A stretch of DNA of 64,000 bases from Candidatus Nomurabacteria bacterium (GTDB lineage Bacteria; Patescibacteriota; Minisyncoccia; Phycocordibacterales; UBA2100), in assembly GCA_943356775.1 (NCBI GenBank), contig CALRFU010000004.1, forward strand, positions 8,546 to 72,545. Direction: 5' to 3'. The position numbers were made by a program, and so were the translations under genes. Position 1 is the stretch's first letter. Each line of letters opens with the position of its first letter. The notes under the pieces are model-generated. The model saw nothing but the letters and a program-made list of their open reading frames with translations, was not told the origin of the DNA and searched no databases. Shown piece after piece: positions 28,508-45,284 of the stretch.

Positions 28508-29395
28508 ATGGAATGGGCCCGCACACATCCGTATACCGCCGCACTGTGCGCAGCGGGAATTCTCGTTCTCATGGGAGTATTCATCGTGGCGAGCCGGGCT
28601 GCACAACCGGCAGGGACACGCGCGACCACATGGGGAGGAGAGGCCGCACCCCTTTTGAATCCGACCTCGAACAATAATCCTCAAGCCACACCGGGCGGCA
28701 TGCCAACCACACAGCCGGTACAAGACGGTCCGCCGTATACCTATATTGCGCCGAGCTTCTCGACCTCTCCGTCTTCTGAAGAAGAGAGTTCGTATGACTT
28801 TGCCGCTTTCATAACGAAACTCACGAAGGAATCCTCCTCGAAAGGGCAACCCGAGGCGCCCGCCGACGATTCCCTCCTCAGCGCCTATGCATACATTCCT
28901 CGTGGACTCATGAGCACTACTTCCATCTCACGCCCACAGAGGACAGCGCTCCAACAAGAGCTCTATGACTACGGCAATGATATCGGTTCGACGATTGAAT
29001 CGCATGAACAGCAACACTCAAATACGATTCAAATACTAAAAGGGCAAGTCGAAGACCGCACAAACCCTGAAAAGGCGGCTGCCGTCGTGCGAATAGGACG
29101 CGACCTACAGGAGCTAGGGGAGAGTCTGGCCGCTATGGAGACGGTACCGTCAACCATCTCTTCCACGCACGATGCCCTCGCACGAAGCTACATCGAAATC
29201 GGAAAAAATCTTGCGCTCATACCAAGCGCCGAGCGCGATAGCGACTTTATTGCAGCTATTCAGACCTACAACTCATCCGCAGACACGTTTACAAGAAACT
29301 ACATCCAGCTTGTGTCACTCTTCGGGGCGCACGGCGTAACGTTCGCCGCAAGTGATTCGGGAAAAGTCTTCTCTTTTAGTCCGACCGGGTTTTAG
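28508..29395 (+). CDS. Hypothetical membrane-anchored protein with an N-terminal TM segment and an extracytoplasmic alpha-helical domain
   Basis: The gene follows the upstream gene's stop after one intervening base. The product has TM segment LCAAGILVLMGVFIV and shares its architecture with the next gene. Confidence 0.45.
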   Translation: MEWARTHPYTAALCAAGILVLMGVFIVASRAAQPAGTRATTWGGEAAPLLNPTSNNNPQATPGGMPTTQPVQDGPPYTYIAPSFSTSPSSEEESSYDFAAFITKLTKESSSKGQPEAPADDSLLSAYAYIPRGLMSTTSISRPQRTALQQELYDYGNDIGSTIESHEQQHSNTIQILKGQVEDRTNPEKAAAVVRIGRDLQELGESLAAMETVPSTISSTHDALARSYIEIGKNLALIPSAERDSDFIAAIQTYNSSADTFTRNYIQLVSLFGAHGVTFAASDSGKVFSFSPTGF

Positions 29396-29437
29396 AGAGC
29401 CTCTGCAAATACCCAAATCCACTAAACCCCTTCAGAC

Positions 29438-30328
29438 GTGAGCGCCTCGCTCTCTTCCGTGCGTTATACTAATCGTGTGGAAATAGAACGCGCGTACAAA
29501 AGCGGGCGTGTTTGTCCTACTTTCGTAGGCAGGCATTCTACCGTCTCTCTCACACAGCATGGTTTCTCTCATATCTTTATTACTGCAGCCGTATCTCTCG
29601 TCGTTCTCGTCGGCGTAGTGGGCTGGCAAATCAACAGTTTCGTGCGCGACCGCAGCGACGCGACATCGTACATTGCCACGTCCGATTCGCTCGACTCTGA
29701 CGCCGCGAACACAGACCCTTTAGCTGACAGCTCTCTCTTTGGTATAGATCCTGGCACCACACCAATTGGCTCTGCAGTGCTGGACAGTGTCGTAGAAAAA
29801 TACTTATCTCTGCAGTCACAAGGTCTTTACACACCCGAGGTAGGAGAGAAAGCTGCAGAAAAGATGGCGGAGGGCCTCACTGCTCCCACAGAGCATCGAA
29901 CCTACGCTGCCGCAGATATCCAGACGAGCGCCGATACATCCTACGCACGCATGATTACGTATCGAACCGACTTGCAACTCTCCCTCATGCCTCTCCTTAA
30001 AAATACCGAGCCTGAATATGAGGTTTTCGCATACTACGTAAGCACACGAGATAAAAAACACCTCGAGAAACTCAAGGCTGCCGCACAAAATTACCGTGCC
30101 GCAGCACAGGCGACCGCACACGTCGTCCCGCCGAAGGACGCGCTCTCTCAGCATGTTGGCATTCTGAACGCGCTCGAAGCATTCGCTGCAGCGCTCGATG
30201 CATTGGCCGTAAACGCAGAGGACCCATTCGCTTCCGTGGTCGTTCTCCGCGGATACAACCAAGCTGAGACCGGTGTCCTCACCTCGTTCGCATCTCTTGC
30301 TAAGTACTACCGAGAGAAACAATCATGA
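29438..30328 (+). CDS. Hypothetical membrane-anchored protein (GTG start) with architecture similar to 28508-29395
   Basis: The product has TM segment ITAAVSLVVLVGVVGW. The stop overlaps the next gene's ATG (ATGA). Confidence 0.4.
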   Translation: MSASLSSVRYTNRVEIERAYKSGRVCPTFVGRHSTVSLTQHGFSHIFITAAVSLVVLVGVVGWQINSFVRDRSDATSYIATSDSLDSDAANTDPLADSSLFGIDPGTTPIGSAVLDSVVEKYLSLQSQGLYTPEVGEKAAEKMAEGLTAPTEHRTYAAADIQTSADTSYARMITYRTDLQLSLMPLLKNTEPEYEVFAYYVSTRDKKHLEKLKAAAQNYRAAAQATAHVVPPKDALSQHVGILNALEAFAAALDALAVNAEDPFASVVVLRGYNQAETGVLTSFASLAKYYREKQS

Positions 30329-32487
30329 GTATGAAACGCTCCCTCTTTGCCATTCTACTGTTCAGTGCGCTCGGTATAGTACCGCTTGTTACTCTCGCTC
30401 AGACTGACATGACAGCACCGACCTCTCCCACGAATCTGCGCGCATCAGCCGTCTCCTCCTCTGCGATTCTTCTAACTTGGAACGCTTCTACGGATGCGAG
30501 CGGGGTACAGGGCTACAAAATATACCGAGCGACTGCTCCAAGTACGACCACCGTACAGGTCGCGACATCGACCACCCTCTCATTCCAAAATTCAGGTCTC
30601 GCCCCTGCGACAAATTACATCTATAGTGTCGCTGCGTACGATACGGCTGGCAATACATCCGCGAAGTCTACGCCCGCATCGACCGCAACGCAGGCGAGTA
30701 CAGGAACTTCGGGGGGAACGGGCTCGACTGGAACGGGGAGCACTGGGGGGACGGGGACAACCGGCACAGGGAGCACGGGTACTGGGAGCACGGGTACTGG
30801 GAGTACGGGTACTGGGAGCACGGGCGGCACAGGAACGGGGAGCGGAACGCCCCCCGCCAGTCTTGACCTTCAGCGACAAGGAATTTTCGATTGTAATCAA
30901 AACGGGGCATACGCAATGAGTGTCGGGGCACTCGGTGCGACGGGCGGCGTGTATGTACCGGTTGCGGACTCGACGGTTGAGCTAAATACCGGCACGCTTG
31001 TCTACAAAGAGTGCGTCTTGAGAGAGGTCGTAAACCGAGAGCGCGAAGCCGCGACTGCTGGTCTCGGAAGAACGGCGATAAGCGCAATCCAAACTGGTCG
31101 CAACGGCTCACCCCAGTATGTGGTAGACCAAGACATGGAGATCCTGCTTGGAGCGAATGACCCTGCCTTTCTTGCTTTCCTGCGAGATGATGCGCTATGG
31201 CAAAATGTGCACCCCGCCATTCGAAATCCCCTCAAGCGCGCTGCGGTACGAGCGTACGAAGCCAAGACTGGTGCTCCCGGAGCAATGATTGCTTGTCCCT
31301 ACAAGGGCGACCTTGAAGCGTTCCGAACCGGCAAAACCAGATTTTCAATAGCGACTTTCCTTGAGGCTACCGCTCCTCAGTGCGACCCGGTAATCGCAGC
31401 TGCTCTCCTCGAGGAGATTAGCAACGCGCGCATCGCGAAGTGCACCCAGTATATACGCGACCAATGGGACTGGGGAGGCGGGTACTACGCAAAGACAGAC
31501 GATCCAAACAACCCTTGCTCGGCGAAAATCCTGACCCCCGCCTCAACCATCCAGCAATCGTTCCAGACTATTATCGACAGCCCCGTGCGCCAGCTTGAAA
31601 GCGCCAACGACATCGGACAAATGATAAACGCCCTGTATGCAGGCTTGACGACGCAGATAATCTCGGACAACAAGGGTCTCGCTGGGCTCACCCAATCCAT
31701 CGCTGGTCAGCCGCGGTACATAGACAGAGTGGTGCAGGAGGCAGCTCAAGGACTCCGCAATGCCGCGACCAACGTTGCCATACAAAATCTCCAGGTCGCA
31801 CAGCGCATAGAGGCTCTGTACTTACAGACGGTAAATGCGATGGGGGCGGCACTCACGACGGCAATACAACAGTTGCGCAGCGCGGAGAAACAGTGTTGGG
31901 ACCTCATCGTCTACCAGAATGACGGAAAGCCCGAGCGGCATGTGTGTGCGGGTCCGCTTGCCGCCGACAAGACATGTACTTCATATGTGGGAGGGTGTAC
32001 GACTGACACTCAAACAGGTACGCAAACATGTCCCGCCGGCGCTGTTCTCCAGGTCTCCACCTCCACCGCATTTTCACAATCGGTTATCACACGAAGTATT
32101 CAACCGCTCGCAACCACAACCTTGGCGCGTATCGAATCGTCGCAAAACGCGCTTAATCTGATTGGTAGATTGATCGAGGGCGTCACGGGCTCTTCACTCG
32201 ACGCCCAGCGCCTTGCAATCGTGCAGCTCAATTCGCTCGTCGCTCAAAAATTGCTCCACATCCAGCCCGACCTCGACGGACCAAATGGCGTCATCAAACA
32301 ATTGGATAATATACAGACAGCAATACTGGGTAGCGAGGGGCTGGTCGTGACGACAATCAAGGCGTGGGCTGACTCAACAAATATCCCCCCAGGATGGTGC
32401 AACGTGAACAATCCGGCGGTCCTCGAGGCATGGAAAAAATGTTGGAATAAAAATAATCCAGACCGCTCCGCCTGCCCTACACCATGA
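30325..32487 (+). CDS. Large secreted protein with a fibronectin type III-like domain and a Gly/Thr low-complexity linker
   Basis: The product has a signal peptide and an FN3-like region NLRASAVSSSAILLTWNASTDASGVQGYKIYRA...YIYSVAAYDTAGN. The linker reads (GSTGT)n. Confidence 0.55.
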   Translation: MSMKRSLFAILLFSALGIVPLVTLAQTDMTAPTSPTNLRASAVSSSAILLTWNASTDASGVQGYKIYRATAPSTTTVQVATSTTLSFQNSGLAPATNYIYSVAAYDTAGNTSAKSTPASTATQASTGTSGGTGSTGTGSTGGTGTTGTGSTGTGSTGTGSTGTGSTGGTGTGSGTPPASLDLQRQGIFDCNQNGAYAMSVGALGATGGVYVPVADSTVELNTGTLVYKECVLREVVNREREAATAGLGRTAISAIQTGRNGSPQYVVDQDMEILLGANDPAFLAFLRDDALWQNVHPAIRNPLKRAAVRAYEAKTGAPGAMIACPYKGDLEAFRTGKTRFSIATFLEATAPQCDPVIAAALLEEISNARIAKCTQYIRDQWDWGGGYYAKTDDPNNPCSAKILTPASTIQQSFQTIIDSPVRQLESANDIGQMINALYAGLTTQIISDNKGLAGLTQSIAGQPRYIDRVVQEAAQGLRNAATNVAIQNLQVAQRIEALYLQTVNAMGAALTTAIQQLRSAEKQCWDLIVYQNDGKPERHVCAGPLAADKTCTSYVGGCTTDTQTGTQTCPAGAVLQVSTSTAFSQSVITRSIQPLATTTLARIESSQNALNLIGRLIEGVTGSSLDAQRLAIVQLNSLVAQKLLHIQPDLDGPNGVIKQLDNIQTAILGSEGLVVTTIKAWADSTNIPPGWCNVNNPAVLEAWKKCWNKNNPDRSACPTP
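30700..30850 (+). repeat. Tandem 15-bp repeat (actgggagcacgggt, about 4-5 copies) encoding GSTGT repeats, inside a wider Gly/Thr/Ser-rich linker
   Basis: The repeat is read directly from the sequence at about 30764-30825. Confidence 0.6.
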
Positions 32488-34964
32488 GTATGTCAACTCG
32501 AAATAACCACGTGCATATCCTAGTGTCTATCATCTTAGTAGGCATGCTGTTACCAGTCTTCGTTGAGGCAATGACAGCGGATGCGTATCTAAGCCTTGTC
32601 GCCACGCAGAGACAACAAAATAAGCAGCGCCCCCTGAACACGGCAGAAACAAACGCAACCGTGACCGCATGGAATTCACTCTCAGAAAATCAACGACTCT
32701 ATGTAGAAAATCGAATAGCGGCAATACAAGCAAACATTGCCCGATACGGCGGCAATCTTCCCATCGGAGCTGCCATAGGAGTGATTGGTAACGGATACGA
32801 TCAGTTGCCACCTAACGAACAGGGAATACTTACTAAAGATGCGAAGGAAGAGGCTGCAAACCCGCAAAAGAGATCGTCCGCATCATGGTGCTCTGGCATT
32901 GTGGACTGTCTAATGCTGATACCAAGTGCGATAGGAAAGGCTATTTTTACACTCCTTGGCGGATTTCTACTTGAACTAAGTAGGGTGATTCTCGGGATCG
33001 CGGGGCTTTTGTTCAATCTATTGATCGAGAAGACCATCATACAATTTGGCACCTTCTACGGGGATATGAAACCCGCGGTCGAGCAAGCCTGGACAGCGTT
33101 TCGCGATATCGCGAATATTCTCATTATTGGAATCTTTACGTTTATCGCAATCTCCATCATTCTCGGACTCAAAGAGTACGGTCAAAAGAAAATGATTGCG
33201 AACGTCCTCATCATCGCAGTGATGATAAATTTCAGTCTGCTGTTTGCAAAAATGATAATCGATGCGTCGAATTACACTGCCGCGCAGATATACACCGCCG
33301 CCGCTCTTGGGGGGACAGGAGGGACAACGGGCGGAACAGCAGGTGCTGCCTCGACACAAACGACCTACGGAATAGCCGACCAGTACATGAACCTGCTTGG
33401 AGTCGGATCGGTGGGTGGGTCCTTTAATGTTCTGTGGGATGTGCCCGGCGCTTGGGCCACCCTTAGTCACAGCATTTTTATGACGATGATTCTGCTGGGC
33501 GCCGCCTTGGTACTTTTTTATGGATGTTTTCTTCTCGCATCACGCATGATTATGCTCATATTCCTTATGGTAACCGCATCAATCGCATTCGCGAGTTATC
33601 TTATTCCTAAGTGGGCAGGAAGCTCTTACGGATGGAGCGCCTGGTGGAGCTCACTCCTCTGGTGCGCGGCGCTCGCACCGATACTCATGTTCTTTCTCTG
33701 GATGACACTCAACGTCTCGTACGCCCTCAAGGGGACTTCGAGCCCAAATTTAAGCGCCGCACTTTCGAACCCCTCGGTTTCGACCATCGGCTTTCTCCTC
33801 AATTACCTTCTTATCCTCGGTCTTCTCTTCGGCACATTCAAGATCTCGAGCATGGCGGCAAACAAGATCGGCGGATTTAGCTTCGCGCAAATGGCAACCG
33901 CGCTTCCGCTCACCATGGGTTCTCGATTCCTTGTAGGAGGCCTGGGGCGATTAGCTGTAGGAGCTCCTGCGTATTTTAAAGGGAAAAGTTTGACCAAGGA
34001 GGCTCGTGGTTTACGCAATGAGGCAGCGCAGGCTGAATTAGCAGCAAAGAGACACGAAAGTTTCGGGAATCTTGGATTGGCGGATCAGGCGCGAGCAGAG
34101 GCGAAGAGAAAGCGAGACGAGGCTGCCGGAAAGATACAGCGAGCCGGTCTTATGGGTACACTTGCCAGTAGTAAGTTTAACGTGATGGATACTGCGGGAG
34201 CTAAAGCCGTTATGGGCGCTGTTGGAGTAAAAGGTTTCGCAGCAGGGGCATCATCTAAAATGATGTTCGAAAAAGGTATCGCAGACCGAGTTGAAACACG
34301 GGCTAAGGCGGCAGAAAAAATGGCGGCAAAGATGGCCCCCTCGACAGAGCAAAACGACGATGCTGAGAACGAAGCGCGGCGTGTTGTTCGCGAACAGAGG
34401 CAGGTGGCACTGGCCCAGCTTGAAGCAACGAGAGATGCTACAAAGACAACTGAGCAGCTCGAACAGAAATTGACTACAGCAAATCAAGACGCTAAGACAG
34501 TTGAGGATACGGCTTCGAAGGAAAAGGCGCGTATCCAAACCGACCCAACGATAGGACAGCAACGGCGACAGGGGCTAATGAAGGCGGAAGACGATAAGAT
34601 CGAGAGAGCTGCCGCGACCGTACAGGCGGTACAAAACAGGATTAACTTCTTAGATAAGCCCGCAAAAGATCATGACGCGGAAACGGAGCGGCTCGCGAAA
34701 AAGGCAGGCGATGACATCGTTGGGGCTATGCGGGACAGCGCCATTGACATTGCCGAACGAATTGGAGAAAAACAAGGAGATATTTTTACGCGCGCATTTG
34801 GAACCCTCAATAGAGAAAATAAAGCTGTTGCCGACGAGACAAAAGATATGTACAAGAAAAAAGTAAAAACTGCGAGGTTCCGAGATGCAATAAAGTTGAC
34901 TCAAGATGAGGATGGAGGGGGTGCCGCACCAGCGGCCGCCGCGCCGACAACCCCCCATCCGTAG
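32484..34964 (+). CDS. VirB6/TrbL-like (PrgH-like) polytopic membrane protein with a long charged coiled-coil C-terminal tail
   Basis: The product has a signal/N-terminal domain, at least six TM helices, and a Lys/Glu/Ala-rich tail. It sits immediately upstream of the VirB3/VirB4 homologues. Confidence 0.5.
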   Translation: MSMSTRNNHVHILVSIILVGMLLPVFVEAMTADAYLSLVATQRQQNKQRPLNTAETNATVTAWNSLSENQRLYVENRIAAIQANIARYGGNLPIGAAIGVIGNGYDQLPPNEQGILTKDAKEEAANPQKRSSASWCSGIVDCLMLIPSAIGKAIFTLLGGFLLELSRVILGIAGLLFNLLIEKTIIQFGTFYGDMKPAVEQAWTAFRDIANILIIGIFTFIAISIILGLKEYGQKKMIANVLIIAVMINFSLLFAKMIIDASNYTAAQIYTAAALGGTGGTTGGTAGAASTQTTYGIADQYMNLLGVGSVGGSFNVLWDVPGAWATLSHSIFMTMILLGAALVLFYGCFLLASRMIMLIFLMVTASIAFASYLIPKWAGSSYGWSAWWSSLLWCAALAPILMFFLWMTLNVSYALKGTSSPNLSAALSNPSVSTIGFLLNYLLILGLLFGTFKISSMAANKIGGFSFAQMATALPLTMGSRFLVGGLGRLAVGAPAYFKGKSLTKEARGLRNEAAQAELAAKRHESFGNLGLADQARAEAKRKRDEAAGKIQRAGLMGTLASSKFNVMDTAGAKAVMGAVGVKGFAAGASSKMMFEKGIADRVETRAKAAEKMAAKMAPSTEQNDDAENEARRVVREQRQVALAQLEATRDATKTTEQLEQKLTTANQDAKTVEDTASKEKARIQTDPTIGQQRRQGLMKAEDDKIERAAATVQAVQNRINFLDKPAKDHDAETERLAKKAGDDIVGAMRDSAIDIAERIGEKQGDIFTRAFGTLNRENKAVADETKDMYKKKVKTARFRDAIKLTQDEDGGGAAPAAAAPTTPHP

Positions 34965-34969
34965 AATAT

Positions 34970-35542
34970 ATGGATGCAACAACCTCTCAAGATAAACTGA
35001 ATGAAAAACTCCAGAAGCGCTTTAAAGAGTTGCCGAAGGTCATACAGGATGCTGTTACCTCAGCTGAGGTTGAAAAACAACTCCGCACATTAGCGGACAC
35101 AAACAAACTGCATATCGACCAGTGGCAACTTCTTGAGAATGAAGTCATGCTTACGCTTTTTGGCTTCCAACCGGCAGAAGAGCTCGCCCATCATCTAAAA
35201 ACTGACCTTGATATCTCTACGGAGAAAGCCGAGCAACTTGCAGTTGAGATTTCTCGAATTGTTTTTGAACCTATCCGCGAAGAACTTGAACGCGAACTTG
35301 AGCATCCGGATGCAAAAGCCGCTGCGGTAAGCGACGTAGAGGGAGCACGCACACAAGCGCTCACTGCTGAAGCCGCCTCAATTGCCCCTGTCGTACCCGC
35401 AGTATTGCCGGCGACGCCACCCGCAGATGCACCCACAACAAAAATAGAACGTGCTCCGGTATCCGAATCGTACAAAGCGGGGGAGACGAGTGCGGCGCGC
35501 AAATCGGTTCACGATGATCCGTATCGTGAGATACCCGCGTGA
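34970..35542 (+). CDS. Hypothetical soluble acidic protein within the type IV secretion-like array
   Basis: The 190-aa product has no TM segment and no recognisable motif. Confidence 0.35.
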   Translation: MDATTSQDKLNEKLQKRFKELPKVIQDAVTSAEVEKQLRTLADTNKLHIDQWQLLENEVMLTLFGFQPAEELAHHLKTDLDISTEKAEQLAVEISRIVFEPIREELERELEHPDAKAAAVSDVEGARTQALTAEAASIAPVVPAVLPATPPADAPTTKIERAPVSESYKAGETSAARKSVHDDPYREIPA

Positions 35543-35583
35543 ATAACGCAGAGTTCGCTCCTCTGCACTGATATACTACAGTC

Positions 35584-36099
35584 ATGCAGTTCCAGGTTCC
35601 TCAATTCATCGAGGTCGAGGATAAAATATTCGGTCCGCTGACCTTCAAACAATTCATCTACGTAGGTGGCGGTCTCGGCGCGTCGTACATTCTCTGGCGC
35701 TTACTGCCTATCTACCTTGCAGGACCTCTGATTGCGGTCGTCGGCGGCACCGCCGCAGGGTTAGCTTTTTTTCAGATCAACGGCAGGCCATTTATTATCG
35801 GTCTCGAGAACGGGTTCTACTTTCTTATACGCAGTAAGCTCTACCTATGGAATAACGCGCGCAAGAAGGGTATTCCTGCCCCGGTCGCACGCGCGCTCGC
35901 AGAGAGCAGGGGTGATGTCTACGTACCCAAGCTTTCCGAAAGTAAGCTGCACGAGCTCTCCTGGAATCTCGATATCAAGGAACGCATCTCTGCGGGAGTC
36001 GCAAATGACGAAGAGCGGCACACAGTCCGGACGGCAGAAAATATCGTAACCCCCATCCGTACGCCACAACAGGCGATGTCATCGCTTTCTTCCCGTTAA
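35584..36099 (+). CDS. VirB3/TcpE/PrgI-like small two-TM membrane protein
   Basis: The product has two adjacent hydrophobic helices after a short N-terminus (FGPLTFKQFIYVGGGLGASYILWRLLPIYLAGPLIAVVGG). It lies directly upstream of VirB4. Confidence 0.4.
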   Translation: MQFQVPQFIEVEDKIFGPLTFKQFIYVGGGLGASYILWRLLPIYLAGPLIAVVGGTAAGLAFFQINGRPFIIGLENGFYFLIRSKLYLWNNARKKGIPAPVARALAESRGDVYVPKLSESKLHELSWNLDIKERISAGVANDEERHTVRTAENIVTPIRTPQQAMSSLSSR

Positions 36100-36105
36100 T
36101 ACCGT

Positions 36106-36768
36106 ATGCCTACTCAAGAAGACAAAGGGCCACGCGCGAGCGCAAAATCGACACAGGACTTCCTGCCGGTTTCTGAGGTGCGCGATGGCGTCATCGTACT
36201 CAAAGACGGCGGCTTGCGGGCGATACTCCTCGCATCCTCCCTCAACTTCGCCCTCAAGTCCGAAGACGAGCAGACTGCATTCATTATGCAGTTCCAAAAT
36301 TTCCTCAACTCGCTCGATTTTTCCGTGCAGATATTTGTGCAGTCGCGCATGCTCGATATCCGGCCCTATGTTGCCACCCTCGAAGTCGCCTACAAAGAAC
36401 AGCTCGACGACCTTATGCGAATCCAAATCCGCGAATACATCCAATTCGTAAAAAGCTTCACCGAAGCCGCAAACATCATGACCAAAAACTTCTTCCTCGC
36501 GGTTCCGTATTCACCTTCGGTTAACATCAAAAGGGGCGGCGTGCGCTCCATGCTTCCGTTCGGGAAAAAAGATGCGAACACGGAAGAAGCGAACCGCACA
36601 TTCGAAGAGCAGGTTTCCCAGCTCGAACAGCGCGTTTCAATTGTGCAACAAGGCCTCATCCGCACGGGAGTACGCACGGTGCAGCTCGGCACTGAAGAGG
36701 TGATAGAGCTTCTCTACAAGATGTTTAATCCCGGCGAGGAGGGCAAACCAATGCCACTGCAAAAATAA
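36106..36768 (+). CDS. VirB4/TraE/PrgJ-family conjugal ATPase, N-terminal domain. The ORF stops 1 nt before the ATPase ORF, which is in a different frame.
   Basis: LPVSEVRDGVIVLKDGGLRAILLASSLNFALKSEDEQ matches the conserved VirB4 N-terminus of Gram-positive T4SS ATPases. Confidence 0.6.
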   Translation: MPTQEDKGPRASAKSTQDFLPVSEVRDGVIVLKDGGLRAILLASSLNFALKSEDEQTAFIMQFQNFLNSLDFSVQIFVQSRMLDIRPYVATLEVAYKEQLDDLMRIQIREYIQFVKSFTEAANIMTKNFFLAVPYSPSVNIKRGGVRSMLPFGKKDANTEEANRTFEEQVSQLEQRVSIVQQGLIRTGVRTVQLGTEEVIELLYKMFNPGEEGKPMPLQK

Positions 36769-36769
36769 T

Positions 36770-38704
36770 ATGGCGCTTCTGGACTTATTCAAGAAAACCA
36801 AGCCCGAAGACGGGCCGAACATCCTCCCCGTCCTACCCGAGGAAATATACAAATCAGGCATTCTGGATTTGCAGGACGTCATCGCGCCGCATGCGCTGCG
36901 TATCAATTCCCGCGAGCTCGACTTGGGCGAGAAAATCGCGCGCACATTCTTCGTCATTTCATATCCACGTTTTTTGACGACGGGCTGGTTCGCACCTATC
37001 ATCAACATGGACAAGGTCATCGATATTTCCATCTTCATACACCCGATGGATACGAATGAGATGCTCCGCAAATTCCAAAAGAAGGTCGCCGAGGTGCAGA
37101 GTCAGATATCCACACGTGAGTCAAAGGGGATGGTGCGCGACCCGATGCTCGATACCGCGTATTCAGACCTCGAACAACTGCGCGATTCTCTCCAGCAAGC
37201 ACAAGAACGCATCTTCGAAGTAGGTCTCTATCTCACCATCTACGGTAGTACGCGCGAAGAGATAGACAAAGTCGAGACAGAAGTACGCTCCATTCTCGAA
37301 TCGCGTCTCGTCTACATCCGACCTGCGCTTTTCCAGCAAGAGCAAGGATTCCGAAGTGTGCTCCCGCTCGCGACTGACGAGATAAACGTCCATACCAAAC
37401 TCAATTCCGCTCCGCTGTCTTCCATATTCCCGTTCATTTCCTTCGACCTCACCTCAGACCGCGGCATTCTCTACGGCATCAACCGTCACAACTCGTCACT
37501 CATCCTTTTCGACCGGTTCAGCCTCGAAAACTACAACTCCGTGACCTTCGCGAAATCCGGCGCGGGAAAATCCTACACGACCAAGCTGGAAATACTCCGG
37601 AGTCTCATGTTCGACACGGAAGTTATCGTAATTGACCCTGAGCGCGAATACGAGTACCTCGCCGAGACGGTCGGCGGACGCTACTTCAACATCTCACTCT
37701 CGTCTGAGCACCACATCAATCCCTTCGACCTGGCCATTCCGAGAGAAGACGAGAACCCCGGCGATATTCTGCGCAACAACATCATCACGCTCGTCGGGCT
37801 CTTCCGCATCATGTTGGGCGGTCTTACACCAGAGGAAGATGCGGTCATTGACCGTGCTATCACAGAGACATACGCCCTGAAAGACATTTCTGCAGATGCA
37901 AATTTCGCCCTCGTCGAACCGCCTCTTCTCAGTGACTTCGAGCTCGTGCTCTCTGGCATGGAAGGGAGCGAGTCTTTGGTCGCGCGATTATCGAAATACA
38001 CAAAAGGCACGTGGTCGGGATTCATGAACCGCCCGACAAATGTCGACATGAACAAAAAACTCATCGTATTCTCCGTACGCGACATGGAAGACGATTTGAA
38101 GCCGGTCGCCATGTACATCATCACGCACCACATTTGGAATGCCGTGCGCAAAGAACTCCGCAAGCGGCTGCTTATCATCGACGAGGCGTGGTGGATGATG
38201 CGCTCAGAAGACACGGCGTCGTTCCTTTTCTCTATCGCAAAGCGCGGACGCAAATACTTCCTCGGCATCTCGACGATTACCCAAGACGTTTCCGACTTCT
38301 TAAACTCGCCCTACGGCATCCCCATGATTACTAACTCCTCGATCCAGATGCTCCTGCGTCAATCGCCCACATCAGTCGACCTTGTGCAACAGACGTTTAA
38401 ACTCTCCGACGAGGAAAAGTACCTGCTCCTCGAATCCGATGTGGGGGAGGGAATTTTCTTCGCGGGTCTCAAACACGTCGCTATCAAAGTCATCGCCTCA
38501 TATACCGAAGACCAGATAATTACTTCCGATCCTTCGCAGATTCTCGCTATCAAGAAAGCAAAACAAGACCTCGCCGCGGCGAATGAGGGAGGGCCCGGTA
38601 CCGCCGAGGTCGCGGCCGGCGCAGCACAGCAGGCTGAACGCGCGCAATCAGCATCAGTTAATTTCAACCCGTCCGAGGCTCCCGCGACGACACCCCAACA
38701 ATGA
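36770..38704 (+). CDS. VirB4/TraE/PrgJ-family conjugal ATPase, central and ATPase domains
   Basis: The Walker A motif is FAKSGAGKSYT and the Walker B-like motif is LLIIDEAWWMM. The conserved region ISYPRFLTTGWFAPIINMD is present. Confidence 0.8.
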   Translation: MALLDLFKKTKPEDGPNILPVLPEEIYKSGILDLQDVIAPHALRINSRELDLGEKIARTFFVISYPRFLTTGWFAPIINMDKVIDISIFIHPMDTNEMLRKFQKKVAEVQSQISTRESKGMVRDPMLDTAYSDLEQLRDSLQQAQERIFEVGLYLTIYGSTREEIDKVETEVRSILESRLVYIRPALFQQEQGFRSVLPLATDEINVHTKLNSAPLSSIFPFISFDLTSDRGILYGINRHNSSLILFDRFSLENYNSVTFAKSGAGKSYTTKLEILRSLMFDTEVIVIDPEREYEYLAETVGGRYFNISLSSEHHINPFDLAIPREDENPGDILRNNIITLVGLFRIMLGGLTPEEDAVIDRAITETYALKDISADANFALVEPPLLSDFELVLSGMEGSESLVARLSKYTKGTWSGFMNRPTNVDMNKKLIVFSVRDMEDDLKPVAMYIITHHIWNAVRKELRKRLLIIDEAWWMMRSEDTASFLFSIAKRGRKYFLGISTITQDVSDFLNSPYGIPMITNSSIQMLLRQSPTSVDLVQQTFKLSDEEKYLLLESDVGEGIFFAGLKHVAIKVIASYTEDQIITSDPSQILAIKKAKQDLAAANEGGPGTAEVAAGAAQQAERAQSASVNFNPSEAPATTPQQ

Positions 38705-38752
38705 ACGTAAGCATCCCAAAGAGGCTGTCTCTCGCGATATACTGAGAGTGTT

Positions 38753-39811
38753 ATGGCGGCTCGCACTCAATTACTGTTCGTCGCCCTCGTCATATGCGCA
38801 TTCTCTGCGTTTACCTCTCCGGCACATGCGCAATTCAGTCTGACGGGCATGGGGAGCGCGCTCTCTATTTCATTTTCTCCCGCAACTCCGTCTCCCGGCG
38901 ACACCGTGACTGTGTCCGTACAAAGCTCTCTCGTTGACATCCAAGACAGTGACATCCTCTGGCAGGCCAACGGGAAGAACGTCGCGCAAGGGAAGGGCGT
39001 CGACTCTGCGAGGGTTATAGCCGGCGCACTCGGCGCCGAAACACGGATTGTAGTCACCGTCGTCACGTCAGACGGCACAAGCGCTTCGACTGAAGCAACC
39101 ATAAACCCGACCGAGCTCGACCTCCTTGTCGACTCTGATTCGTATACACCGCCCTTTTATCGCGGATGGCCGCGTCCGTCAGCGGGTACCAACCTTCGTC
39201 TCCAGGCGTTTCCACGTTTTAAACGGGGGAACGTGACAGTGTCCGCGTCCGAGCTTATATATACATGGCGGCGCAACGGAGAAGTCCTCGGAAGTATTTC
39301 AGGGCGCGGGAAGACATCGGCGGTCGTCCCCGTCGAACACATCTTCGGCACCGACACAATCTCGGTCGAGGCCCGTAGCGCAGACAGCAAAATGTCACAC
39401 GTTTCGTCTATCTCTGTCTCCGCGACCGAACCTACGCTCGCACTCTATGAAGAGCATCCGCTGTACGGAGTTCTGTATCACCGGGCATTCTCCACGTCGG
39501 CATTCATCTCGGGAGTGGAGGCGACATTCGCGGCTGTACCTTTTTTTGCGCAAGCACGGAGCGTATATGACCCCGCCCTTCGTTTCGATTGGCGCGTCAA
39601 CTCCGCGGAAATTCCGGCAAATCTCAAGAATCCAAGCGCCCTCACCATCAACGCGGAGAATTCAAGCGGAGTAGCATTCATCGAACTCCAGGTCACACAC
39701 GCAACAAACTTTTATCTCGATGCAAAAAATACCTGGAATATGAGTTTTTCATCCGGTGCCGATTCCGGAGCATTCGGACAGTTCAATCCGTTCAATAACG
39801 CAACTCAGTAA
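38753..39811 (+). CDS. Hypothetical secreted beta-rich protein with a signal peptide
   Basis: The N-terminus reads LLFVALVICAFSAFTSPAHA. No motif was recognised. Confidence 0.45.
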   Translation: MAARTQLLFVALVICAFSAFTSPAHAQFSLTGMGSALSISFSPATPSPGDTVTVSVQSSLVDIQDSDILWQANGKNVAQGKGVDSARVIAGALGAETRIVVTVVTSDGTSASTEATINPTELDLLVDSDSYTPPFYRGWPRPSAGTNLRLQAFPRFKRGNVTVSASELIYTWRRNGEVLGSISGRGKTSAVVPVEHIFGTDTISVEARSADSKMSHVSSISVSATEPTLALYEEHPLYGVLYHRAFSTSAFISGVEATFAAVPFFAQARSVYDPALRFDWRVNSAEIPANLKNPSALTINAENSSGVAFIELQVTHATNFYLDAKNTWNMSFSSGADSGAFGQFNPFNNATQ

Positions 39812-39815
39812 ACCT

Positions 39816-41063
39816 ATGAAAATGAAAACTGTCGTCGAATATGTGCTGGCCGTGGTTGTTGTCCTCATACTCGGAAGCCTTGCCGGGTGGTACTTCTTCC
39901 TCCGCACTCAAACCGACACCACCATCGCCGAGAGTGTCGCCCGCGGGTTCGGTCTTGGCGCGCCGGAAGGGAATACAAACGGTAGCGTCTCGAGCGCATC
40001 ACAGGAGGCGGCGACCGACGCGTCGCCCGCACAATCGGCACAGCGTCCCGCCCAGCTTTGGAGTGTGGAACCAAAACCGACATCGGGACACACGTTCATC
40101 GGGAGCGGAAAAAATCTCCGGCTGCGCTACGTAGAGCGCGCGAGCGGGTACGTACTGGAAGCCGACCCCGAGACAGGACAAATTCTCCGCCTCACCAATA
40201 CGCTCATGCCGAAAATTTATGAGGCTTTGCTCAGTGAGAACGGACACGTGCTTGAACGCTCACTCGATACGGCCGGGAACATAACAACGTTCGTCGGAAC
40301 TATAGCGACAAGCACAAGCTCCGCATCTTCATCGGCCAAAACCCTTACCGGGACGTACCTTGCAAAGAATATTTCAAGCGTAAGCATGCACCCGGTCTCA
40401 GGGGCACTCTTTTATGTTGTGGGCGGTCAGGGCGGTAGCGCCGTTGTAAGTGCCGAGTGGAACGGCGAGAAACAGAAAACGCTTCTTGAATCAGCAATCA
40501 TAAGCTGGAAACCCGTCACCTTGGCAGACGGTCGCACCATACTTGTGCAGGCCGCCGCCGATGGAGTACCCGGTTATAGCTATGAAGTGAGACAAGGCGG
40601 GGTCCTGAACGCCATACTCGGGCCTGTCCCCGGTCTCGTGGTACGCGCGCGACCTTCGTCTTCAGCAGGCACCCCAAATGCCCTTTTGTGGAGTCAGTCA
40701 ATCGGCGGAACTCTCAGCGTATTCGCCCGTGTCGACCAAAACTCGACAGCGGTGCAAATACCCGTGAGGACTGTCGCAGATAAATGCGTATGGAAATCCG
40801 GAGAAGGGTTCGTCGCGTATTGCGGCGTGCCTCAGGGTTCGACCGGTCAAAACTTCCTGGACAATTGGTACCGGGGTGCGACGCACTCATCCGATGCACT
40901 GTGGCGCATTGATGCGAGCGCAGGCACTGCAGAGATACTCTACACTCCTCCCTCTAACACACCGGTTGATATTGAAAATATACTGATAGACAAAGCGGGG
41001 CAGTACATTTCTTTTACTAACGCCGCGGATAAGTCGCTCTGGCTCTTCCGGCTCACTAAATAA
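39816..41063 (+). CDS. Hypothetical membrane-anchored extracytoplasmic protein
   Basis: The product has an N-terminal TM segment (VVEYVLAVVVVLILGSLAGWYFF). The ATG lies 5 nt after the upstream stop. Confidence 0.45.
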   Translation: MKMKTVVEYVLAVVVVLILGSLAGWYFFLRTQTDTTIAESVARGFGLGAPEGNTNGSVSSASQEAATDASPAQSAQRPAQLWSVEPKPTSGHTFIGSGKNLRLRYVERASGYVLEADPETGQILRLTNTLMPKIYEALLSENGHVLERSLDTAGNITTFVGTIATSTSSASSSAKTLTGTYLAKNISSVSMHPVSGALFYVVGGQGGSAVVSAEWNGEKQKTLLESAIISWKPVTLADGRTILVQAAADGVPGYSYEVRQGGVLNAILGPVPGLVVRARPSSSAGTPNALLWSQSIGGTLSVFARVDQNSTAVQIPVRTVADKCVWKSGEGFVAYCGVPQGSTGQNFLDNWYRGATHSSDALWRIDASAGTAEILYTPPSNTPVDIENILIDKAGQYISFTNAADKSLWLFRLTK

Positions 41064-41065
41064 AT

Positions 41066-41596
41066 ATGGCCGCACTCATTCAGTACCGTGTATACGCGCT
41101 GTGCGCCCTCAGCGCTCTCGCAATCACCTGTATCCTTACCCCGTACATCACACACGCGGCGGATTTCGTCCCGCTCGCGCAGACCCCGGGAGGCTCGAAG
41201 CTTGGACAGCTCTACAGCTCCGGTGATTTCTCTAACTTTATAAACGGGCTGTTCAAATTTGCTATCGCTCTCGGTGCTATCGGTGCGGTGCTTCGCCTCG
41301 CGTACGCAGGCTATCTCTACATGGGGCAGTCAGATATGTGGAGCCAAAAAGGAGCAGCCAAAGAAATCATCAAAGACGTGACCCTCGGACTCCTCCTGCT
41401 CTTGAGCATTTACCTCATTCTCTTCCAAATCAATCCCGATATTTTGACACTCAAAGCGTTGCGCAATATCAAAGAGATACGGCAGACAGGCCCCGCGGCG
41501 CCATCGACATCATCAGGCGGCGGCATGCCCGCAGGACTAGAGCCATCCGGCTTACCTAGCAATCCTCTCGACTCGACGTTCCTCGGAGCGCCTTGA
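41066..41596 (+). CDS. VirB2/TrbC-like pilin candidate with a signal peptide and two hydrophobic helices
   Basis: The signal peptide is followed by the helices FINGLFKFAIALGAIGAVLRLAYAGYLYM and VTLGLLLLLSIYLILFQI, separated by a short charged loop. The C-terminus is Pro/Ser/Gly-rich. Confidence 0.45.
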   Translation: MAALIQYRVYALCALSALAITCILTPYITHAADFVPLAQTPGGSKLGQLYSSGDFSNFINGLFKFAIALGAIGAVLRLAYAGYLYMGQSDMWSQKGAAKEIIKDVTLGLLLLLSIYLILFQINPDILTLKALRNIKEIRQTGPAAPSTSSGGGMPAGLEPSGLPSNPLDSTFLGAP

Positions 41597-41597
41597 G

Positions 41598-42071
41598 TTA
41601 ATCGGTGGAATACTTAATGACGACGCGGCGGCTTCTTCCTTCTCCCTGTGACTCTGTTTTTACATTCGGGGCGTCCTGCAGTGTCGTGTGCACAATGAGT
41701 CGCTCGTAGGCACTCATAGGGGAGAGTTCCACATCGTATTGAAATGACCGCGCCCGTTCCGCCATCATTAAAGCTTTCGTCTGCAGGTCTTTTATCTGTT
41801 TCGTACGGTACTCATTGACGTCGACAAGAAACATCGGCGTACGCTCGGCAATCGCTCCCTCAACCGGGGTCGGCAGGCGATTCTCGTAAATTTTCTTCAC
41901 CAGAAAATCAATGGCATGAAGGGTGTCCCCATGCGCGCCGATAAGGGTGTGTGTGTCGTCGGTGCGGATTGAAAATATTTCCTGGCCCGCTACGGAGCTC
42001 TGTTCGATACTCGAGTAGGGGATACTCGCTGCGGTGAGCAATTCTTTGAGGATAGCGGAGACGGATTCCAT
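41598..42071 (-). CDS. jag: Jag/KhpB-like RNA-binding protein with an R3H domain
   Basis: The product ends with LSPMSAYERLIVHTTLQDAPNVKTESQGEGRSRRVVIK. The gene sits downstream of yidC. Confidence 0.7.
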   Translation of the reverse strand: MESVSAILKELLTAASIPYSSIEQSSVAGQEIFSIRTDDTHTLIGAHGDTLHAIDFLVKKIYENRLPTPVEGAIAERTPMFLVDVNEYRTKQIKDLQTKALMMAERARSFQYDVELSPMSAYERLIVHTTLQDAPNVKTESQGEGRSRRVVIKYSTD

Positions 42072-42122
42072 GGAGGGCACTATACCCCATGACATACAGA
42101 CACTCAACCCGCCCCCTCTGTT

Positions 42123-42860
42123 TTACAGTCCTTTCCCGAACCGTCTACCCGCCGCGTACTCCTGAAGTATCATTAAAATGTTGCCGGTTACCCAATAGAG
42201 AGGTGCCGCCGCGGGGATGGTGTAGGCGATAACGCCGATAATGGCGGGGAGCATATAGCGCGCCTGCAAATCAAAACTCTTGGCCATGTCGCCGGAAAGA
42301 GAGGCCTCAACGGGAGTCGCATCAAGCACTTTCTGACGCGAACCCATCGAGAGGCGCGTGTAGATAAATTGTGTGAGAGCCGCAAGGACGGCGAGAACTA
42401 TGCTCCGCTGCGACATATCAAGCACACCGAGAAATTCCATGTTGACCGATGCCGGTACCTGTACGAACGAGTACAGGAGCGACGCGTCGACCTTCGGGAA
42501 TCCTCCCGCGTAAAAGACCCAGTAGAGTCCGATAAGGACGGGGAATTGTATGAGGACAAGTCCGATACTCGCAAAGGGATGCACTCCGCGCTCCTTGTAG
42601 AGCGCAAATATCGCCCTGCCCTGCTCTTCGCGGTTATCTTTGTGTTTCGCCTTCAACAATTCCACCTCCGGGGCGATTTCCTTCATAGCCATTTGCGCTT
42701 TGATTGCGCGGCTTGAAAGCGGATAAATAATGATACGTACCACAATCGTGAGTGCGATAATGGCGAGACCTATATCGTGCGAAGGAATGATTCCCACGAA
42801 GAACGCCACCCCATTGTAGAGCGGGTCGTAAATACCCGCGTGAAAGAGATTCGATATCAT
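42123..42860 (-). CDS. yidC: Membrane protein insertase YidC, short Gram-positive-type form
   Basis: The product contains PLSSRAIKAQMAMKEIAPEVELLKAKHKDNREEQGRAIFALYKERGVHPFAS. Confidence 0.85.
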   Translation of the reverse strand: MISNLFHAGIYDPLYNGVAFFVGIIPSHDIGLAIIALTIVVRIIIYPLSSRAIKAQMAMKEIAPEVELLKAKHKDNREEQGRAIFALYKERGVHPFASIGLVLIQFPVLIGLYWVFYAGGFPKVDASLLYSFVQVPASVNMEFLGVLDMSQRSIVLAVLAALTQFIYTRLSMGSRQKVLDATPVEASLSGDMAKSFDLQARYMLPAIIGVIAYTIPAAAPLYWVTGNILMILQEYAAGRRFGKGL

Positions 42861-43210
42861 GATTGGAGTATTCTATCCCGCGCATCAATAGTTCTCAACA
42901 GCTTCTGAATATCGCTCGTCACCTCAGCCCGGGACGCTTCACGCGCTTCTCGTTTGGCGTAGAAGATAAAAGCCGCTGACTGTGTCCTTCCCGCAAGGAG
43001 TGGACGGAGGCTTTCTCGGCAATGACGTTCAATTCGATTGCGATCAACCGAGCGTGGAGATACTTTTTTTGAAACCACACACGCTGCCCGCGGCCCACCC
43101 AAAGAGGGAAGCGGCGTCACCGTTACAGAGAAAAAATCCCCGTGAATGCGCCGGGCAGGGCGGGGGAGGCGGATAAATTCGGCACGTGAGAGCCGGTATT
43201 TTTTTGGCAT
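42857..43210 (-). CDS. rnpA: RNase P protein component
   Basis: The product reads MPKKYRLSRAEFIRLP...RNRIERHCRE. The gene lies between rpmH and yidC. Confidence 0.8.
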   Translation of the reverse strand: MPKKYRLSRAEFIRLPRPARRIHGDFFSVTVTPLPSLGGPRAACVVSKKVSPRSVDRNRIERHCRESLRPLLAGRTQSAAFIFYAKREAREASRAEVTSDIQKLLRTIDARDRILQS

Positions 43211-43226
43211 GATGAGGCGGGACAGC

Positions 43227-43367
43227 CTACACCGTAAGCTTCGCGCGGCCTTTACGGCGGCGGCGGACCAAGACGTTCTTGCCCGATGTGCTCGCTGAGC
43301 GCGCGCGGAAACCGTGCGTGCGGACACGCTTACGCTTCTTTGGCTGCCAATTTCGTTTTGTCGACAT
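43227..43367 (-). CDS. rpmH: 50S ribosomal protein L34
   Basis: The reverse-strand translation is [46 protein letters not shown]. This ORF is below the size cutoff of the supplied ORF track. Confidence 0.85.
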
Positions 43368-43458
43368 GCCGCCCACTATACCCGTATTCCTAATTAATTC
43401 AACCTTTGCGACCTCACAGGATAAAAATCACCCCCCGATCAATCTACAATCAAAACAA

Positions 43459-43578
43459 GCGCTTGTGTGGCGTTGCCGAACCTCGCGCAGCGGATAAAAG
43501 GACCGCCAACACATACAGCAGTGGTGATACACGGCACGATCGAGACAAACTTCAGGTTCGGCAACGCCACACAAGCGC
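43459..43578. repeat. Perfect 25-bp inverted-repeat pair with a 70-bp spacer, in the rpmH-dnaA intergenic region
   Basis: The arms gcgcttgtgtggcgttgccgaacct (43459-43483) and aggttcggcaacgccacacaagcgc (43554-43578) are exact reverse complements. A DnaA-box-like TATCCACA lies at 43610-43618. Confidence 0.6.
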
Positions 43579-43700
43579 GCAAATCCACTCTCCCCACACT
43601 ATCCACACCTTATAAACAGTGGCATGACCGAACTTGAAACTTCCCCAGAGAAGCGTCCCGCGTATAATGTAGAACTTGGTTGCGCATGACTACTACTTCT

Positions 43701-45050: not shown

Positions 45051-45284
45051 TCACCCTGTTAATAACTCCACGAACAACCACTGCTCAGAACTCGTACAAC
45101 CTATCACTTATCCACTCCGAAAAAATATGAAATTACTTACTCACAACTTATCCGAACTTCCGGTGAAAGTTCTCAACAGTGAACTTCACCGAAAATACAT
45201 AATCAATTCCTCGATTAGAATGATTTCTCCCCAGTATCCACAGTACTAATAGTAGTAATAGTATTTATATATAATTATCTAGGT
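45051..45284. promoter_or_regulatory. Candidate oriC core with DnaA-box-like motifs and an AT-rich unwinding element
   Basis: The region contains ttatccact, cttatccgaac and agtatccacag, followed by the AT-rich stretch taatagtagtaatagtatttatatataattatc immediately upstream of dnaN. Confidence 0.5.

Follow-up and report, generated by a model that had tools for sequence, protein, structure and literature searches.

ORF1 and ORF2, two adjacent open reading frames of the 64,000-nt stretch of DNA analyzed here (referred to as the window), very probably encode, on a Candidatus Kaiserbacteria-like (Patescibacteria) chromosome, a VirB4 whose division into two genes is natural and ancient. The stand-alone TrsD/TraD-like protein ORF1 corresponds by homology to residues 1 to ~200 of the VirB4 N-terminal domain, and ORF2 is a VirB4/TrsE-type ATPase that combines the remaining half of this domain with the RecA-like C-terminal ATPase domain. 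The arrangement of TrsD next to VirB4 is already described and is normal across Patescibacteria and classic Gram-positive conjugative plasmids.

Layout of the locus and of the ORF1-ORF2 junction

The positions of the two ORFs and of the neighboring genes are listed in Table 1. Inspection of the reading frames confirmed the structure given in the original prediction, namely, a 220-aa and a 644-aa ORF in different frames that meet at TAA-T-ATG and together amount to 864 aa. DGVIVLKDGGLRAILLASSLNFALKSEDEQ is located at residues 27 to 56 of ORF1. Upstream of its ATG, the frame of ORF2 contains no stop codon over 63 nt, starting at position 36707. No Shine-Dalgarno sequence is present before ORF2. 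As Shine-Dalgarno cores precede only 4 of 45 long ORFs, such sites are hardly used in this genome and the missing ribosome-binding site of ORF2 is uninformative. Judged from its nucleotide sequence, the junction looks like one of the termination-reinitiation (translational coupling) type.

Both ORFs belong to a cluster with similarity to type IV secretion system (T4SS) genes. The PrgI-family protein is likely the membrane anchor for the TrsD-like/VirB4 pair, and the gene order prgI, ORF1, ORF2 as well as the synteny of the cluster were retained in the loci L001 to L005. The ORFs of the window that were scanned included neither a relaxase nor a VirD4-type coupling protein.

Table 1. Coordinates of ORF1, ORF2, and neighboring features in the window
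Feature	Position	Strand	Remarks
T4SS-like cluster holding ORF1 and ORF2	28508..41596	+	Co-directional, origin-proximal; 28508 is not an established upstream boundary
PrgI-family (VirB3-like) membrane protein	35584..36099	+	171 aa, directly upstream of ORF1; PF12666, 38.5 bits (cut-off, 27)
ORF1	36106..36768	+	220 aa; ATG at 36106, TAA at 36766-36768
TAA-T-ATG junction	36766..36772	+	ORF1 stop, 1-nt spacer (single T, 36769), ORF2 start
ORF2	36770..38704	+	644 aa; ATG at 36770, stop at 38702-38704; one frame over from ORF1
Walker A, AKSGAGKS	37550..37573	+	ORF2 residues 261-268, from translation; fused homologue aligns GKAGSGKS there
Walker B, LLIIDEAW	38168..38191	+	ORF2 residues 467-474, from translation
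T4SS-pilin-like protein (weak)	41066..41596	+	176 aa, cluster end; PF18895, E = 3e-4, 21.2 bits (below cut-off of 26.6)
jag/yidC/rnpA	41598-43327	-	Adjoin the T4SS-like cluster
dnaA/dnaN	43680-46391		Near the T4SS-like cluster

Coverage of VirB4 by ORF1 and ORF2

ORF1 aligned with positions 13 to 200 of the 201 positions of the TrsD profile NF041427 (E = 1.6e-5), and the score of 24.9 bits did not reach the curated cut-off of 200. By this curated threshold ORF1 is not a TrsD member but a remote relative. This score and the hhalign probability of 68% obtained with TraD of Staphylococcus aureus indicate that the homology between ORF1 and the plasmid prototype TraD is remote. In total, 7,922 homologues of ORF1 were found, the best 120 of which all had a length of 216 to 240 aa, and 149 of the best 150 cluster representatives (50% identity) had the stand-alone form. 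PF26593 (TraC-like) was a precomputed match on all 120 ORF1 orthologues among the matches listed. The Pfam scan left it unmatched in ORF1 and likewise in P0007, despite the precomputed match of the latter, the model apparently being absent.

The sequence of ORF1 gave no match to PDB chains at E <= 10. An AlphaFold2 model of the protein (pLDDT 86.4) was searched against the PDB with Foldseek, and the best 14 matches were all TrwK/VirB4 chains of the R388 T4SS (probability 1.0, TMq 0.52 to 0.64, ~225 aligned columns); the next match had an E value of 0.19. According to this model, ORF1 is predicted to fold like the N-terminal region of VirB4.

For ORF2, Pfam matches were obtained with P-loop_TraG, AAA_10, DUF87, and the C-terminal end of TraC_F_IV. 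The score with the profile NF045971 (VirB4-like, CD1110 family) was 364.9 bits and exceeded the cut-off of 325, whereas ORF2 stayed below the cut-off of TIGR00929 (113 versus 643) and below those of other equivalogs. Residues 231 to 586 matched 4AG5, the VirB4 C-terminal domain (E = 5e-40), and TrwK was matched with an E value of 2.7e-7. The region matching 4AG5 is preceded by ~230 residues, which begin with MALLDLFKKTK, and the C terminus of ORF2 is an A/Q/P-rich tail of ~55 aa.

The original prediction had suggested an alignment of both ORFs to PF03135 (CagE_TrbE_VirB), but neither of them matches this family at E <= 0.1, and full-length VirB4 profiles of NCBIfam were used in its place. ORF1 and ORF2 cover positions 2 to 184 and 271 to 724 of TIGR00929, positions 8 to 114 and 180 to 733 of the CD1110 family profile, and positions 100 to 233 and 286 to 893 of the VirB4_plasma profile, respectively. 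At the level of these profiles, ORF1 followed by ORF2 thus corresponds to contiguous, non-overlapping, and colinear parts of VirB4, as had been anticipated. ORF2-type ATPases lack the first ~180 to 270 positions of every full-length VirB4 profile, and exactly these positions are supplied by the TrsD-like protein.

In the window, VirB4 is not a single polypeptide, as the ORF1 stop codon is followed by a new start, and the same was found at 81 of 81 orthologous loci. A rare fused homologue of 797 aa (P0268; MBI3088895.1) was identified in three Candidatus Colwellbacteria MAGs. Its residues 2 to 210 align with ORF1 and the subsequent residues 225 to 796 with ORF2, and it spans positions 18 to 725 of TIGR00929 without a break.

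Conservation of the two-gene arrangement

The window was compared with 81 orthologous loci from ~80 Patescibacteria species (GTDB species representatives), comprising Kaiser-, Taylor-, Campbell-, Zambryski-, Adler-, and Nomurabacteria and relatives; the orthologous-locus scan was based on an alignment of 12 closer sequences. An ORF1 stop codon and a separate ORF2 ATG were present in all 82 loci, and a fused form in none. The gene order of the window (VirB3-like gene, ORF1, ORF2) recurred in the 81 Patescibacteria loci. The spacer between the ORFs ranged from -4 nt (ATGA) to +442 nt, with 63 of the 82 loci between -4 and +15 nt and 11 loci having a spacer of 1 nt. Spacers of more than 15 nt were found in 19 loci, 7 of which had more than 100 nt, and some of those above 15 nt showed a TATAAT-like box ahead of ORF2, indicating that tight translational coupling is not universal. 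All three possible frame relations occurred (23, 29, and 30 loci), and in the 23 loci with ORF2 in the same frame as ORF1 (of 82, window included) a stop codon still separated the two. The N terminus of ORF2 was kept as M-[AGS]-[LIF]-[LF]-D-[LF]-[LF]-K-K-K, and, judged by this pattern, the ORF2 start is genuine. In a short related contig (L014), ORF2 was cut to 202 aa, which shows that errors or real frameshifts do happen in the family.

The proteins closest to those of the window were Candidatus Kaiserbacteria orthologues with 80 to 93% identity. For both ORFs, pN was 0.07 to 0.17 and pS was 0.65 to 0.80, with saturated synonymous divergence, and dN/dS was at most 0.07. Strong purifying selection acts on ORF1 as well as on ORF2.

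A sequencing or assembly frameshift might have broken a single VirB4 gene of ~860 codons, as the 1-nt spacer and the change of frame are a possible product of a single-base indel and the cut ORF2 of L014 provides a precedent. This explanation is extremely improbable, since the stop codon and the separate start recur in 81 of 81 other loci, which come from independent assemblies and different species, and since junction sequences, spacers, and frame relations vary between these loci. In addition, a stop codon is present between the ORFs even where they share a frame, the ORF2 N terminus is conserved and led by methionine, and the ORF lengths in the window (220 and 644 aa) are those usual for the family. 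We assign a similarly negligible probability to an inactivating mutation, that is, a pseudogenization that left the secretion locus non-functional. It is suggested by the stop codon inside the would-be fused VirB4 and by nothing else, and it is opposed by the low dN/dS of both ORFs at saturated synonymous divergence, the intact Walker A and Walker B motifs, and the fact that two genes are the family norm. Moreover, TrsD was placed among the essential genes of Ca. S. epibionticum ML1 (PMC12102498; Quinonero-Coronel et al. 2025, Microb Genom), and the T4SS of this cultivated relative (Ca. Southlakia epibionticum ML1) was reported to be essential for epibiotic growth (PMC10633639; Wang et al. 2023). 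Among the three options raised at the outset, a genuine two-subunit VirB4 is thus supported by the split in 81 of 81 loci and the dN/dS of <=0.07, which refute the other two, and the suspected loss of function of the locus is unsupported in view of the purifying selection on both ORFs and the intact Walker motifs. The comparison with orthologues yielded the consistent split and the intact start expected for a natural two-gene arrangement; the lack of a ribosome-binding site has no bearing in a genome that rarely uses Shine-Dalgarno sequences.

Programmed +1 ribosomal frameshifting or stop bypass would lead to a fused 864-aa protein. A shift within the 63 nt in which the ORF2 frame is open upstream of its ATG would fuse the ORFs, and the Colwellbacteria protein indicates that a fused form is viable. 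On the other hand, the frame relation is not conserved, spacers reach 442 nt and contain stop codons, a promoter-like TATAAT box lies directly 5′ of the ORF2 ATG in some loci, and no conserved slippery or shift-prone motif was found within 25 nt before the junction. Because neither frame relation nor spacer length is conserved, programmed frameshifting was rejected as very improbable.

The TrsD-like protein might also be an independent accessory or regulatory factor, e.g., a chaperone for assembly or an inhibitor that imitates the VirB4 N terminus, rather than an integral subunit of the ATPase. Long low-complexity C-terminal extensions in some ORF1 relatives (P0166, P0169), the location of Gracilibacteria TrsD homologues mostly away from virB4 (PMC12102498), and the spacers above 100 nt, which permit independent expression, would be in line with such a role. 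It is nevertheless improbable, as the protein provides precisely the profile part missing from ORF2-type ATPases, as the natural fusion in Colwellbacteria joins both parts in the canonical order, and as adjacency is the rule, with 82 of 82 loci in our set and 1,664 of the 2,272 TrsD homologues of Patescibacteria adjoining virB4 in PMC12102498.

The two-gene VirB4 and known systems

In a two-gene VirB4, ORF1 and ORF2 would be co-transcribed with the VirB3-like prgI gene. Of the VirB4 N-terminal domain, ORF1 would supply the first half and ORF2 the remainder, together with the Walker A/B ATPase. The TAA-T-ATG junction probably couples translation of the two ORFs, which would favor roughly equal amounts of the products. 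These most likely associate non-covalently and rebuild a VirB4-like ATPase, which would dock on PrgI and power a Patescibacteria type IV secretion-like machine. It is conceivable, although unlikely, that the split itself has a function, with the free TrsD-like module docking first on PrgI/VirB3 and then recruiting the truncated ATPase or gating its hexamer assembly. If true, Patescibacteria and pGO1/pIP501-type systems would possess a regulated, dissociable VirB4, and the pair is not described as such in the literature examined.

Staphylococcus, Enterococcus, Streptomyces, and Patescibacteria appear to share the break point, which would imply one ancient fission and a rare re-fusion in Colwellbacteria. 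The view that TrsD is a detached piece of VirB4, namely, the first half of its N-terminal domain, is supported by the common break point, by the naturally re-fused protein, and by the fold match to TrwK. In PMC12102498, TrsD was described as remotely homologous to the VirB4 N terminus and as the most abundant T4SS component adjoining virB4 in Patescibacteria, and it was treated as a component of unassigned function; the pair was not described as a split VirB4 with a common break point. A 2025 FEMS review on T4SSs mentions neither TrsD nor the split. As regards TraD of pIP501, a 2026 paper on TraF does not mention it. A detached VirB4 half is a concrete, testable role for TrsD and adds incrementally to what has been published, without amounting to a discovery. 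For annotation, it follows that a split VirB4 gene in Patescibacteria or in pGO1/pIP501-type systems is no reason to call a frameshift or a pseudogene and that the T4SS-like locus of the window should be treated as intact.

On S. aureus plasmids of the pSK41/pGO1 type, traD (227 aa) directly precedes the gene for TraE (670 aa), and plasmids of the Inc18/pIP501 type encode a TraD of 209 aa and a TraE of 653 aa. TraE had originally been cited as a single chain of about 800 to 860 aa; since a separate TraD is present in both prototypes, the premise of a universal single polypeptide in monoderm systems is wrong. As in the window, a VirB3-like gene is followed in these plasmids by a protein of ~210 to 230 aa and then by a VirB4-type ATPase of 650 to 670 aa. 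The S. aureus TraD scored 227.6 bits with NF041427 (cut-off, 200) and the Inc18 TraD 107 bits. ORF2 is colinear with S. aureus TraE from TraE residue 31 (23% identity), and the start of the latter, MAFLKKKKQ, resembles that of ORF2, MALLDLFKKTK, at an equivalent position. Both plasmid types are conjugative and carry a relaxase and a coupling protein, whereas the locus described here is chromosomal and the scanned ORFs of the window included neither of the two. On the unannotated stretch of the Streptomyces plasmid NZ_CP081497.1, a TrsD-like domain protein of 319 aa (hhalign probability, 97.5%) is followed, with a 4-nt overlap, by a 621-aa ATPase that is the best plasmid match to ORF2 (35.9% identity). 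The upstream protein is longer than ORF1 and has an extra N-terminal region of ~135 aa. This split pair is of the actinobacterial kind, in which an SCO6880-family protein accompanies the ATPase. The SCO6880-family profile matched the window ORFs weakly (E = 0.006 to 0.09).

Single-chain VirB4 proteins, such as TrwK of R388 (PDB 7O41/8RTD), the CD1110 family, and MBI3088895.1, share with ORF1 plus ORF2 both the profile positions covered and their order. In contrast to these, the window has two polypeptides, which are separated within the N-terminal domain and not at the boundary between the N- and C-terminal domains. The TrsD and virB4 genes of Patescibacteria T4SSs show the same order as the window (prgI/VirB3-like, TrsD-like, virB4), a chromosomal location adjacent to dnaA, and no relaxase or coupling protein detected nearby. 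The window thus adds one more orthologue of this pair, with no substantive difference.

Two reading frames covering one VirB4

The original prediction that virB4 is split at a TAA-T-ATG junction was confirmed at 36766-36772, where a TrsD/TraD-like ORF (ORF1, including the quoted peptide DGVIVLKDGGLRAILLASSLNFALKSEDEQ at aa 27-56) directly precedes the VirB4 ATPase ORF (ORF2). Both ORFs together gave a colinear, non-overlapping coverage of full-length VirB4 profiles; the expected contiguous coverage was found with TIGR00929, the CD1110 family, and VirB4_plasma, whereas PF03135, the domain proposed for the alignment, matched neither ORF1 nor ORF2. The structure of the VirB4 C-terminal domain (4AG5) was matched by ORF2 aa 231-586 (E 5e-40), which puts the break within the N-terminal domain instead of at the boundary between domains. 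ORF2 ends with an A/Q/P-rich tail of ~55 aa (38525-38701), and the orthologous ATPases range from 599 to 702 aa.

Features of the split virB4 locus, its surroundings, and plasmid counterparts
Feature	Position	Strand	Details
ORF1	ATG 36106 to TAA 36766-36768	+	220 aa
ORF1-ORF2 spacer	36769	+	single T between TAA and ATG
ORF2	ATG 36770 to 38704	+	644 aa, next frame relative to ORF1
Walker A	ORF2 aa 261-268		AKSGAGKS
Walker B	ORF2 aa 467-474		LLIIDEAW
TIGR00929	profile positions 2-184 (ORF1), 271-724 (ORF2)
CD1110 family	profile positions 8-114 (ORF1), 180-733 (ORF2)		ORF2 364.9 bits (cut-off 325)
VirB4_plasma	profile positions 100-233 (ORF1), 286-893 (ORF2)
Example starts (SD scarcity, TATAAT-like boxes)	upstream of 35584, 38753, 42860 (-), 43686, 6726, 11697 (-)
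LysM + M23 peptidase	22874-24067	-	about 4.4 kb upstream of the cluster
UvrD/PcrA-type helicase	24349-27369	+	1006 aa, intein inside
Two large cluster proteins	30325-34964	+	overlapping-coupled genes, ATGA at 32484-32487
435-aa ORF	39756-41063	+	GTG 39756; 56-nt overlap with preceding gene (38753-39811)
PilB-type T2SSE ATPase	55412-57109	-	outside the cluster
S. aureus pSK41/pGO1-type plasmid	CP030420.1		traD 227 aa, TrsD model 227.6 bits (above cut-off); ATPase 670 aa
Inc18/pIP501-type plasmid	NZ_CP116965.1		upstream TrsD-like protein 209 aa, 107 bits; ATPase 653 aa
Streptomyces plasmid			upstream 319 aa with TrsD-like domain (hhalign 97.5%); ATPase 621 aa, 4-nt overlap

The NCBIfam TrsD/TraD model matched ORF1 over its full length with 24.9 bits, far under the cut-off of 200, and ORF1 orthologues are annotated with Pfam PF26593 'TraC-like'. 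An AlphaFold2 model of ORF1 (input alignment of 58 sequences; pLDDT 86.4) matched solely TrwK/VirB4 chains of the R388 system in the PDB (probability 1.0; TMq 0.52-0.64 with about 225 aligned columns), the first match beyond these chains appearing at E 0.19. Some TrsD-like relatives (P0166, 406 aa; P0169, 443 aa) carry low-complexity, P/Q/A/S-rich C-terminal extensions of ~200 aa.

Conservation of the split and a natural fusion

Of the 7922 homologues of ORF1, the top 120 are 216-240 aa long, are 74-93% identical, and belong to Candidatus Kaiserbacteria and other Patescibacteria. When 1.84 billion cluster representatives were searched with ORF1, 149 of the 150 best matches were stand-alone proteins (146-443 aa). 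The sole fused form among them is a rare TrsD-VirB4 protein of 797 aa from three Candidatus Colwellbacteria MAGs (P0268/P0271/P0272; MBI3088895.1, MBI2506916.1), in which aa 2-210 align to ORF1 and aa 225-796 to ORF2 and which covers TIGR00929 positions 18-725 in a single stretch. Judged by this alignment, ORF1 and ORF2 are two parts of one VirB4, parted within a short variable linker.

Orthologous contigs show the gene order of the window, with prgI followed by a 221-225 aa gene and a 633-642 aa ATPase gene, and their junctions vary (TAG-gtct-ATG in one, a 12-nt spacer in another). Fused and split arrangements were compared in 82 loci, namely the window and 81 non-duplicate loci, with 80 further loci drawn from GTDB species representatives. 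In all 82, ORF1 ended at a stop and ORF2 began at an ATG of its own, and no locus had a fused ORF1-ORF2. Spacer length extended from an ATGA overlap (-4) up to +442 nt and lay between -4 and +15 in 63 loci, the three frame relations occurred 23, 29, and 30 times, and the MALLDLFKK-like N-terminus of ORF2 was conserved. Against ten orthologues, both window ORFs showed 0.07-0.17 non-synonymous differences per site with saturated synonymous differences (0.65-0.80), and dN/dS was ≤0.07 for ORF1 and ORF2 alike.

Of the three explanations offered originally, a genuine two-subunit VirB4 thus proved right, given the split at all 82 loci, the colinear coverage, and selection on both ORFs. Stand-alone homologues as the norm, the 82 junctions with their three frame relations and variable spacers, and the low dN/dS exclude a sequencing or assembly frameshift and an inactivating mutation, and likewise conserved programmed frameshifting. 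One short contig exemplifies what an artefact looks like in this family: in L014 (4185-bp contig VMEY01000080.1, about 1009-1617) the ATPase ORF has only 202 aa although the contig runs on, and either a genuine frameshift or faulty assembly may be the cause.

Translation signals and locus setting

No Shine-Dalgarno (SD) site was found before ORF2, which is uninformative because a 4-mer core at -20 to -4 precedes only 4 of 45 long window ORFs. At many window starts the ATG follows a TATAAT/TATACT-like box at a distance of 6-12 nt, a pattern that looks like leaderless mRNAs. In five loci with long spacers (L029, L030, L050, L054, L068) such a TATAAT-like box precedes the ATG of ORF2 by about 7 nt, suggesting independent, leaderless ORF2 expression, so that ORF1-ORF2 coupling would not be obligatory.

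In Patescibacteria, no T4SS component was detected more often than TrsD (2,272 homologues, 1,664 adjoining virB4), a protein without assigned function that is included among the essential ones of Ca. S. epibionticum ML1; the T4SS clusters usually miss a relaxase and often have dnaA nearby, an origin-adjacent location being reported for some Patescibacteria (Quinonero-Coronel et al. 2025, PMC12102498). Epibiotic growth was found to require the T4SS (Wang et al. 2023, PMC10633639). The window cluster agrees with those described: the window ORFs scanned included neither a relaxase nor a VirD4-type protein, and the cluster end adjoins jag (R3H), yidC, and rnpA (-), then dnaA and dnaN (+) (41598-46391), which places it beside a likely replication origin.

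The large cluster proteins have 720 aa (N-terminal fibronectin type III domain) and 826 aa (no Pfam match), and 865-958 aa genes are their equivalents in orthologous loci. Between a 190-205 aa gene and prgI, L001 (5080-5430) and L004 (5037-5408) contain an extra 116-123 aa gene of the PF05635 23S_rRNA_IVP/bAvd four-helix-bundle family, which has no counterpart in window 35542-35584. The true start of the 435-aa ORF is probably ATG 39816 (415 aa, as called in L001). The LysM + M23 peptidase might serve the T4SS-like machine as a cell-wall hydrolase, and the PilB-type ATPase indicates type IV pilus machinery. In the helicase, the intein (Intein_splicing aa 281-617, Hom_end_hint aa 250-285) separates the N-terminal UvrD helicase domain from the C-terminal one.

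A two-gene VirB4 and its plasmid counterparts

Observed are two conserved, selected cistrons that sum to VirB4 and adjoin a VirB3-like gene, mostly with very short spacers. ORF1 and ORF2 would be co-transcribed and, at the TAA-T-ATG of the window, translationally coupled. Non-covalent binding of the TrsD-like protein to the N-terminal portion of ORF2 would make the N-terminal domain of VirB4 complete, the domain that in R388 contacts VirB3 and the membrane, and the complex would energise the Patescibacteria T4SS-like machine. A purely regulatory TrsD-like protein is less probable, since TrsD provides precisely the segment that is missing from the ATPase.

The two-gene arrangement is the norm for TrsD-like/VirB4 homologues and has already been described. 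TraE, originally cited as a single chain of 800-860 aa, is wrongly so described for the pSK41/pGO1 and Inc18/pIP501 types, which encode two proteins. Modest additions are the natural re-fusion in Colwellbacteria and the TrwK fold matched by the predicted ORF1 structure. As with ORF1-ORF2, traD of the S. aureus plasmid lies directly 5' of the ATPase gene; TraE aligns with ORF2 from residue 31 onward and starts similarly (MAFLKKKKQ versus MALLDLFKKTK), and by these two likenesses the break point looks homologous between staphylococcal TraD/TraE and ORF1/ORF2. A further addition is that this break point appears to be common to Patescibacteria and the pGO1/pIP501 prototypes.
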